Position numbers: made by a program
Source: Escherichia coli O127:H6 str. E2348/69
Lineage (GTDB): Bacteria > Pseudomonadota > Gammaproteobacteria > Enterobacterales > Enterobacteriaceae
Strand: one strand, 5' to 3'
Length of the DNA: 64,000 bases
Assembly: GCF_000026545.1 (NCBI RefSeq)
Contig: NC_011601.1
In this document: positions 29,201-32,200 of the stretch, piece by piece
Numbering within the stretch: position 1 is the stretch's first letter
How the letters are laid out: each line of letters begins with the position of its first letter

Positions 29201-32200
29201 AAAGCACGGCTCGGGATCTGACGACACAGATCCTCGCCTGGCCACAAGAAGGCAAATCTGCCCGTGCTGTCAGTGGCCTGAACATCCTTACCCTGATGAA
29301 TAATGATATGGCGCTGATACAGCTGCACCATATATCCCAACGGGCGAAATCCCGCTCCTTACGTGATAACGCGGCGGAATTTCTTCAGGTGGTCGCAGAA
29401 AATCGCGGGCTAAGCCAGGAAGAGTTAGCGGACAGATTAGTCCCAACACTGGGTCTTGATGATCCGCAGGCGTTGATTTTTGATTTTGGTCCACGGCAAT
29501 TTACCGTTCGCTTCGATGAAAACCTCAACCCGGTTATCTTTGATCAGCAAAACGTTCGCCAGAAAAGCGTTCCCCGGTTGCGCGCCGATGACGATCAACT
29601 GAAAGCCCCCGAGGCACTGGCCCGACTAAAAGGGCTAAAAAAAGATGCGACTCAGGTGAGCAAAAACCTGCTCCCGCGTCTTGAAACTGCCCTGCGCACC
29701 ACCCGACGCTGGTCGCTGGCAGATTTTCATTCTCTGTTTGTTAATCATCCCTTTACCCGCCTGGTTACCCAGCGATTAATATGGGGGGTTTATCCGGCAA
29801 ATGAACCGCGTCGTTTACTCAACGCCTTTCGTGTGGCCGCAGAGGGGGAATTCTGCAATGCACAAGATGAGCCCATTGACCTGCCTGCGGATGCTCTGAT
29901 TGGCATTGCCCACCCGTTAGAAATGGCAGCAGAAATGCGCAGTGAATTTGCACAGCTTTTTGCCGATTACGAAATTATGCCGCCTTTTCGCCAGTTGGCG
30001 CGGCGCACGGTGCTGCTCACACCTGACGAGTCAGCCAGTAACAGCCTGACTCGCTGGGAAGGTAAATCCGCTACCGTTGGGCAACTTATGGGAATGCGAT
30101 ACAAAGGCTGGGAGTCAGGCTATGAGGACGCATTTGTCTATGACTTAGGTGCGTACCGGCTGGTCCTTAAGTTTTCACCCGGCTTTAACCACTACAGTGT
30201 TGATAGCAAAGCGCTAATGAGCTTCCGTTCTCTTCGGGTTTACCGTGACAATAAATCTGTCACTTTTGCCGAACTTGATGTGTTTGATTTGAGTGAAGCG
30301 TTAAGCGCACCCGACGTTATTTTCCATTAAAACACAGCGGGCAGTGATGCAACTGCCCGTTATCGACACGACTTACCTCCGGGAAAAGCGATGATCGTGC
30401 AAAAAGAGCTGGTTGCTATTTACGATTATGAGATCCCTGTACCTGAAGATCCGTTTTCCTTCAGACTTGAGATCCATAAATGCTCTGAATTATTTACAGG
30501 TTCCGTCTATCGACTGGAGCGATTCCGGCTACATCCAACATTTCATCAACGTGATCGAGAAGATGCCGACCACTAATAAATGGTGCGTTGATTTATATAA
30601 GAGATGAGTTTATTGATGAGCAGAAATTACGAGGTGAATCACATGAAACAGTAATAGCAATTTTTAATTATGAACTACAGAATATATTCAACCAAGAAAT
30701 AAAATAATATACTCTAGATAATTCAAGTCGCAGGAAGGCGATAAGCGAGTGAATCCCCAGGAGCTTACTAAAGTAAGTGACAGGGGTGAACGAACGCAGT
30801 CGCAGCACATGCAACTTGAAGTATGACAAGTAAAGCTTTATTAAAGGGGGAAACGGTATTCCCCCTTAAATGCGTTTCAATTTGCCCGTTACTTCAACAA
30901 ATCAATCAACCGTAACAGAGCCACTAATAACTCCAGTACGGCAATGAGCACGGTTAACTTTTGTGTCAGCGTGTCCATTCGCTCTCCTTATTAAGGAGCG
31001 CAACACCAGCATCTTACCCTTACACTGCCTGTCGATACTGGTTTACGTATGTTGAGTCGCCATGTTGCACTCCGGATCAGAGCACTACCTGCGGCACCAC
31101 CCGTCCGGTAGCCAGGACTTGAAATTGGTTCGATCCGGCGCAACTTCCCAACAGTCAGGATTATAAATCTCATTATCTTAATTGCAACGGGGTCCGTAGG
31201 TGGTTATAATTCGTTCGTTGGGGCGCCATGTTGCATAATCAGTAACTTAACGTCAAAGTTGTAAATAAAAGAACCTGCCTCACCAGCAGGTTTTTTTATT
31301 TTTTGCGATCTGCTTTCCAGATATTTTCCGCTCAAACAACTAATGCGCCAAACATTTATTGCGCGTAAAATATCGTTTATTTCATTAATACATTTCAGGG
31401 ATGAATATATGTCACCGCAGAATAATCACCTGCAGCGTCCGCCTGCTGCTGTGTTATACGCCGTTGAACTGGCAAAATTAAAACAAAATGATAACGCTCC
31501 TTGCCCGCCTGGTTGGCAGTTAAGTTTGCCTGCGGCCCGTGCTTTTATCCTTGGCGACGAAGCGCAAAATATTCGCCGTAAAGTGGTGATTAGTCCCTCT
31601 GCTGTCGAACGCATGTTAGTCACTCTTGCCACCGGGCGCGGTTTGATGTTGGTGGGGGAACCGGGTACCGCAAAATCTCTCCTGTCTGAATTACTGGCAA
31701 CCGCTATTAGCGGCGATGCCGGGTTAACCATCCAGGGCGGCGCATCTACCACTGAAGATCAAATCAAGTACGGCTGGAACTACGCTCTGCTTATCAATCA
31801 TGGTCCGTCAACGGAAGCGCTGGTTCCTGCCCCGCTTTACCAGGGAATGCGCGACGGCAAAATCGTCCGTTTTGAAGAGATAACGCGCACACCGCTGGAA
31901 GTGCAAGACTGTCTGTTAGGTATGCTTTCTGACAGGGTGATGACGGTGCCGGAACTCACTGGTGAAGCCAGTCAACTCTATGCACGGGAAGGCTTTAATA
32001 TTATTGCCACTGCCAATACGCGCGATCGCGGCGTCAATGAAATGAGTGCCGCGCTAAAGCGTCGCTTCGATTTTGAAACTGTCTTTCCGATTATGGATTT
32101 CGCCCAGGAGCTGGAGCTTGTCGCCAGTGCTTCGGCGCGTTTGCTGGCCCATAGCGGCATTCCGCATAAAGTGCCTGACGCGGTACTGGAGTTACTGGTC

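Follow-up and report, generated by a model that had tools for sequence, protein, structure and literature searches.

The closest described counterpart of the locus analysed here is yehK of Escherichia coli K-12, a single 318-nt ORF for an uncharacterised protein of 105 aa (WP_000636925.1; MIVQKELVAIYDYEVPVPEDPFSFRLEIHKCSELFTGSVYRLERFRLRPTFHQRDREDADPLINDALIYIRDECIDERKLRGESPETVIAIFNRELQNIFNQEIE). The position of the gene is conserved, between yehI, which encodes a DUF4132 protein, and yehL, which encodes an AAA ATPase. In the literature on yehK, b4541 and yehLMPQ we found no functional study of YehK; the only relevant mentions concern an antisense sigma-S transcript in the yehI-yehK region and an intergenic SNP. 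A second close counterpart, YehK of strain LF82 (WP_000636916.1), also has 105 aa and is annotated as intact. Its gene agrees in all bases but one with the common deletion allele described below (e.g. that of AH19D088, ST131): LF82 keeps a run of three C residues, one of which the deletion allele lacks.

Here we compare these genes with yehK of E. coli E2348/69, which lies in a stretch of 64,000 nucleotides from the chromosome of this strain (hereafter, the window). The window gene occupies the same yehI-yehL position as the one open ORF of K-12 but is missing one C and ends at codon 61. What it represents is an ordinary pseudogene of lineage-wide occurrence, whose frameshift RefSeq already annotates. 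The analysis nevertheless corrects an earlier assignment of the reading frames, of the site and direction of the indel and of the extent of the gene.

A one-base deletion in yehK of E2348/69

A 430-nt query around yehK matched the chromosome of E. coli E2348/69 (EPEC O127:H6, NZ_CP059840.2) on the reverse strand with 100% identity, and positions in that record were converted by subtracting them from 1,877,095 (Table 1).

Table 1. Features of the yehI-yehK region in window coordinates.
Feature	Position	Strand	Remarks
yehI (DUF4132 protein, 1208 aa), intact	26704..30330	+	60 nt upstream of yehK
yehK pseudogene	30391..30707	+	317 nt; PGAP "protein YehK, frameshifted", NZ_CP059840.2 1846388-1846704
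Remaining ORF, 61 aa (YehK residues 1-60, His61, stop)	30391..30576	+	58/60 identical to K-12
TTG +1 ORF, 64 aa, chance open frame	30413..30607	+	no BLASTP similarity to YehK; pN/pS 1.03
One-base deletion site	30570..30571	+	CC where intact alleles have CCC (alignments)
Out-of-frame C-terminal remnant, residues 62-105 and stop, third frame	30573..30707	+	LINGALIYIRDEFIDEQKLRGESHETVIAIFNYELQNIFNQEIK, then stop; 38/44 identical to K-12
Tandem stops TAA TAA	30574..30579	+	brought in frame by the deletion; sequence reading
E2348-lineage SNP, A to G	30583	+	TGA to TGG in the +1 frame; in the YehK frame, would replace near-invariant D65 by G

At the site of the lesion, LF82 reads GACCCACTA and both K-12 and CE10 read GACCCGCTA. 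These intact alleles are divided into the codons GAC CCA CTA ATA AAT (LF82) and GAC CCG CTA ATA AAT (K-12 and CE10), whereas the window reads GAC CAC TAA TAA AT, so that GACCACTAA in the deletion allele stands against GACCC[A/G]CTAA in the intact ones. Codon 61, which specifies Pro (CCA or CCG) in the intact alleles, is a His codon (CAC) in the window and is followed directly by a stop; in the intact genes, the bases that form the tandem stops belong to the codons cTA ATA AAt (Leu-Ile-Asn). In length, the window gene is one nucleotide shorter than its K-12 counterpart, with intact orthologues ranging from 303 to 321 nt. Owing to the C missing from the CCC run, the ribosome reads GAC-CAC-TAA-TAA and stops after 61 residues, and the remaining 44 codons, which persist in another frame, are presumably no longer translated.

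Homology to K-12 YehK extends over the whole length of the protein. After repair of the frame, the translation of the window aligns end to end with 14 YehK orthologues, and a reading in two frames gives 97% identity to K-12 YehK over residues 1-60 and 86% over residues 62-105. Within the presumably untranslated remnant, D65G, R78Q, P84H, R94Y and E105K distinguish the window from K-12, and the conserved, invariant block N64-E73 is out of frame through the loss of the C. Whereas one continuous reading frame of about 100-106 codons is expected of a YehK gene, the window has a stop after codon 61; it therefore holds a pseudogene of the YehK family rather than a functional member. We consider it very probable that an inherited deletion of one base has inactivated this gene in E2348/69.

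The original prediction had proposed a single-base insertion, with a protein composed of the N-terminus of the ATG frame and the C-terminus (...SIDWSDSGYIQHFINVIEKMPTTNKWCVDLYKR) of an overlapping +1 frame that opens with TTG. Both ORFs exist and overlap, and their positions and translations (61 aa ending in ...HQRDREDADH and 64 aa) were correctly given. Moreover, one rare allele (P0059, a single-member cluster) reads YehK residues 1-37 and then continues in the +1 frame through an independent indel. Disruption by an indel of one base is confirmed as well, but its direction is reversed: one C is deleted and the gene is one base short, not long. K-12 YehK follows the ATG frame through residue 60, and in an alignment with the annotated K-12 protein 60 of the 61 residues of the ATG ORF align, 58 of them identical, a result by which the two-frame model fails the test that the original prediction had set for it. 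What had been taken for an odd, charged tail of the ATG frame (...RLERFRLHPTFHQRDREDAD) is thus genuine YehK sequence, the third frame encodes the real C-terminal end, and the gene reaches 100 nt beyond position 30607, where it had been thought to end. The combined span of 217 nt was calculated correctly, yet it carries no weight as evidence for an insertion, since any two overlapping ORFs that are one frame apart give a length of 3n+1 or 3n+2.

The +1 frame itself has none of the properties of a YehK coding sequence. Its C-terminus had been described as natural-looking, but the ORF lacks similarity to YehK, evolves at a pN/pS ratio of about 1.0 and was not found among approximately 15 billion predicted proteins. 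In all E. coli alleles, that of K-12 included, this frame stays open over some 60 codons before the same TAATAA normally terminates it. The deletion carries the frame past these stops, and the SNP at 30583 then opens the tail "...TNKWCVDLYKR"; other deletion-carrying strains read TNK followed by a stop. The last 11 codons are therefore open only because of the deletion and the SNP. As the six frames of the window hold 226 ORFs of 60 aa or more against about 55 annotated CDS, a 64-codon ORF in an alternative frame is a chance expectation, and we regard the probability of a protein composed of the ATG and +1 frames as close to nil.

Reality and spread of the deletion allele

Three O127:H6 assemblies are identical over the 430 nt around yehK. 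For typing across strains, short probes were built such that any 28-nt megablast seed must cross the deletion site (the deletion probe has 38 nt). Among 5,426 complete E. coli genomes, an ungapped match to the deletion allele (GCCGACCACTAA) was obtained in 925 and the K-12 intact allele was found in 3,327. The CE10-like probe GCCGACCCGCTAA gave a match of any kind in 189 genomes, 177 of which were partial matches that fit the E1 allele with its in-frame 15-nt linker deletion. Another 790 or so genomes match yehK but have alleles outside this probe typing; three of them were sampled (GTC or ATC GAC CCG) and are intact. A perfect match to the 38-nt probe is present in 15 of the 925 deletion genomes and, in the sampled strain RM14723, goes together with the G at 30583.

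Many E. coli lineages share the deletion, which is a real, heritable allele and provides a clean marker. An error of sequencing or assembly in the record, behind which the strain would have an intact yehK, is hardly conceivable. Indels in homopolymers are a common type of error and the older LF82 record represents the same allele with an extra C; however, the C run at this site comprises only two to three bases, the three O127:H6 assemblies agree, and exactly this deletion recurs in the 925 complete genomes. Furthermore, the protein collection lists exactly this 61-aa product on at least 1000 contigs, and some of its sources call it "yehK protein".

Among the strains with the deletion are ST131, ATCC 25922, Nissle 1917, clone D i14 and the type strain ATCC 11775, all of which we take to belong to phylogroup B2. 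PGAP flags the gene as frameshifted in each of nine sampled deletion loci (8 genomes, one being the record of E2348/69 itself). The predicted intact precursor (GCCGACCCACTAA) was detected in only one of the 5,426 complete genomes, that of LF82, and its protein occurs on 15 contigs in all. The history of the deletion may be either a single loss with reversion or one with retention of the ancestral state in LF82. Additional lesions have arisen independently in yehK, as EC476 carries a different frameshift and the rare P0059 allele yet another one.

Ancestral state and selection

In a plain sequence search, homologues of YehK were confined to Escherichia and Shigella. Since E. albertii, E. marmotae and more divergent Escherichia have open ORFs of 101-106 codons at the same yehI-yehK-yehL position, the intact gene is ancestral. 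From aligned codons of 12 intact yehK orthologues, the Nei-Gojobori method gave dN/dS values of 0.06-0.23 relative to K-12 and a pooled pN/pS of 0.30 for the YehK frame, as compared with pN/pS values of 1.03 (+1) and 1.60 (+2) for the alternative frames. These substitution patterns identify the YehK frame as the coding one and indicate purifying selection on the intact gene.

Across nine deletion alleles, five nonsynonymous and two synonymous distinct substitutions were counted downstream of the break, numbers that are too small for significance; upstream of the break there are one nonsynonymous and two synonymous changes, too few to show constraint. E2348/69 is the only one of the nine that adds D65G, R78Q, C94Y and E105K. 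The downstream pattern fits the decay of an untranslated part, although the numbers are too small for proof.

We also considered that the downstream part might still be expressed, either through a programmed -1 ribosomal or transcriptional slip or as a separate C-terminal piece that starts at the TTG at 30588 and cooperates with the N-terminal one. The 44 downstream codons are free of stops in the nine sampled deletion loci, and this TTG does open a third-frame ORF of 39 aa (30588..30707; LINGALIYIRDEF...). However, the sequence GCC GAC CAC TAA TAA, with its run of two C residues, contains neither a slippery heptamer of the type X XXY YYZ nor a long homopolymer, no Shine-Dalgarno sequence is evident ahead of the TTG at 30588, and among the approximately 15 billion proteins the 39-aa ORF has never been called by any gene caller. 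The predominance of nonsynonymous downstream substitutions, one of which replaces the near-invariant D65 by G in E2348/69, argues in the same direction. Recoding or a split gene is accordingly given very little credence, and inactivation by the inherited deletion remains the preferred reading.

The YehK family and the part removed by the deletion

Beyond the reach of the plain search, searching 1.84 billion representative proteins with a profile recovered full-length relatives of YehK of about 100-120 aa outside Escherichia, with E values from 1e-29 to 1e-4. This wider YehK-like family shares with YehK the motif FRLE...G.VYR.E.YRLQPTFPQ...DDAL.YV.D, and an alignment of 40 sequences revealed near-invariant positions at R25, E27, R41, R46, P49, F51, D65 and D72, in addition to M1. 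Two high-scoring "relatives" (P0093 and P0107) were rejected as repeat artefacts. Scans assigned no Pfam or NCBIfam family to K-12 YehK or to any of the three frames of the window, and no Pfam match to the 40 family members; a sequence search of the PDB also returned no match (best E value 0.64).

AlphaFold on 14 Escherichia sequences only gave an unusable model (pLDDT 44.8), and the run with the 40-sequence alignment yielded a confident single-domain model of YehK (pLDDT 88.9, pTM 0.78). It consists of three strands (residues 6-15, 22-31 and 34-47), a low-confidence loop (48-63), a fourth strand (64-71) and a helix (85-100). With the break at residue 61, the protein loses its fourth strand and the C-terminal helix together with the near-invariant residues D65 and D72. 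Because these elements are gone, the truncated product is, judged by the model, most likely non-functional.

It could be argued that the 61-aa fragment with its three beta-strands is still functional in the deletion lineages, so that the gene would be shortened rather than dead. Its ORF and start are intact in all nine sampled deletion loci, the few upstream substitutions include one nonsynonymous and two synonymous changes, and the allele persists across many lineages. Nevertheless, we think this improbable, as such counts are far below what shows constraint, the modelled protein is one compact domain in which the sheet depends on strand 64-71 and on the packing helix 85-100, the truncation costs two of the nine near-invariant residues of the family, and PGAP treats yehK here as a pseudogene.

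An equally improbable reading combines two propositions: that YehK represents a previously unrecognised family of small proteins whose predicted fold matches no solved structure significantly, and that its fixed truncation in a major lineage is not neutral decay. Such a truncation could be an adaptive loss or could leave an active 61-aa form, for example an immunity-like factor or one acting together with YehI or with the YehLMPQ cluster. The contexts of the wider family, mostly on short contigs, are unlike that in E. coli and include Rhs toxin genes, DUF4265, DUF4288, integrase and transposase genes in the vicinity; in the literature on DUF4265 and DUF4288 we found nothing useful. One remote relative is located downstream of an Rhs gene, at a distance of about 1.1 kb and with an unrelated 108-aa ORF between the two. 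This ORF is not YehK-like, and the idea of an immunity protein is weakened accordingly. The gene upstream of yehK in E. coli, yehI, is not recognised as encoding a toxin. An immunity-like role of the YehK family is a lead, not a finding, and we return to yehK of E2348/69 as a gene very probably lost through the deletion.

Neighbouring genes

As the original prediction had suggested, yehK is one of three genes in the window with a candidate indel. PGAP flags yehC, which encodes a fimbrial chaperone, and a molR-like DUF4132 gene as frameshifted in addition to yehK, and the three candidates are annotated pseudogenes rather than sequence errors. All three are different genes, situated within about 13 kb, that agree in their type of lesion and in their annotation flag. 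The direct upstream neighbour of yehK is yehI; the molR-like paralogue is located beyond it, farther upstream.

By itself, the loss of yehK matters little, being one more small gene lost in this lineage of E. coli, and it will be of interest only once the role of YehK is found. The by-products of the analysis are more useful, namely the alignment of 40 YehK sequences, the confident model of the fold and an observation on the downstream region. The truncation of yehK would not be expected to have a polar effect on yehL because the next downstream gene, zorO, is convergent. Just downstream of yehK, the window contains the well-studied toxin-antitoxin locus zorO-orzO, which is unannotated there.

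Independent changes of yehK in other lineages

Apart from the lesion in the window, yehK has been damaged or altered independently in further lineages, as exemplified by strains EC476 and E1 and by the rare single-member allele P0059 (Table). In P0059, the YehK frame is followed to residue 37 and then gives way to the +1 frame. The 101-aa form encoded in E1 carries the annotation "hypothetical protein", and, judged from partial probe matches, the underlying 15-nt linker deletion is apparently present in about 177 genomes. Among the 5,426 complete genomes, E. coli LF82 alone has the common yehK sequence of the single-C deletion clade with the C present; the LF82 YehK protein is represented by 15 contigs in a wider protein collection. 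The LF82 allele could have originated by ancestral retention, reversion or recombination.

YehK is a member of a wider family of small proteins (P0089-P0134; YehK-family alignment A3), for which we found no Pfam model and which includes tandem two-domain members (P0094 and P0130). A fold of four strands and a helix was confidently predicted for YehK (model m857d3d26b22b), with no significant match among solved structures.

Table. Coordinates of yehK loci, flanking elements and other features
Feature	Sequence	Coordinates	Strand	Description
EC476 yehK	L017	161..546		Frameshift other than that of the window, leading into the +1 frame
E1 yehK	L018	161..466		In-frame loss of 15 nt from the variable linker; 101-aa form
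E. coli LF82 yehK	L019	340..657		Intact; 105-aa protein
YehK-like member	L028	8001..8330		Downstream of Rhs/YD-shell toxin genes
ISEc13 (IS4-like) transposase gene	window	12194..13567		Adjoins yehA; yeh fimbrial operon on one side, rcnB on the other
yehC, fimbrial chaperone	window	17347..18022	-	"Frameshifted" pseudogene (PGAP)
molR-like DUF4132 paralogue	window	22898..26694	+	"Frameshifted" pseudogene (PGAP)
GC-rich hairpin	window	30338..30359		8 pairs; within the 60-nt yehI-yehK spacer
zorO	window	30889..30978	-	29-aa ORF
orzO	window	31224..31297	+	Rfam OrzO-P match

Elements flanking yehK

The hairpin upstream of yehK resembles an intrinsic terminator on the minus strand only, where a T-rich tail follows. 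For K-12, a sigma-S-dependent antisense signal has been reported in vitro for the "yehI-yehK intergenic region" (PMC3141248). The hairpin might represent the end of an antisense transcript running across yehK.

Between yehK and yehL, the window harbors zorO-orzO, a toxin-antitoxin locus of type I that lacks annotation, both genes being absent from the gene list of the RefSeq record. The minus-strand ORF encodes MDTLTQKLTVLIAVLELLVALLRLIDLLK, a 29-aa peptide with exactly the published ZorO sequence (PMC6669753), and the OrzO-P match scores 91.5 bits against an Rfam gathering score of 60. Divergent promoter-like sites occur between the two genes at 31160-31210. This locus may explain why the yehK-yehL spacer is longer in the window (about 700 nt) than in K-12 (about 306 nt). 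Two other Escherichia lineages, one of them E. albertii, likewise have an opposite-strand 29-aa ORF called 3′ of yehK.

Other genes annotated as disrupted in the window

The original prediction counted three candidate indels within this one window, in yehK, yehC and molR. Since PGAP flags both yehC and the molR-like paralogue as "frameshifted", this remark agrees with the annotation.
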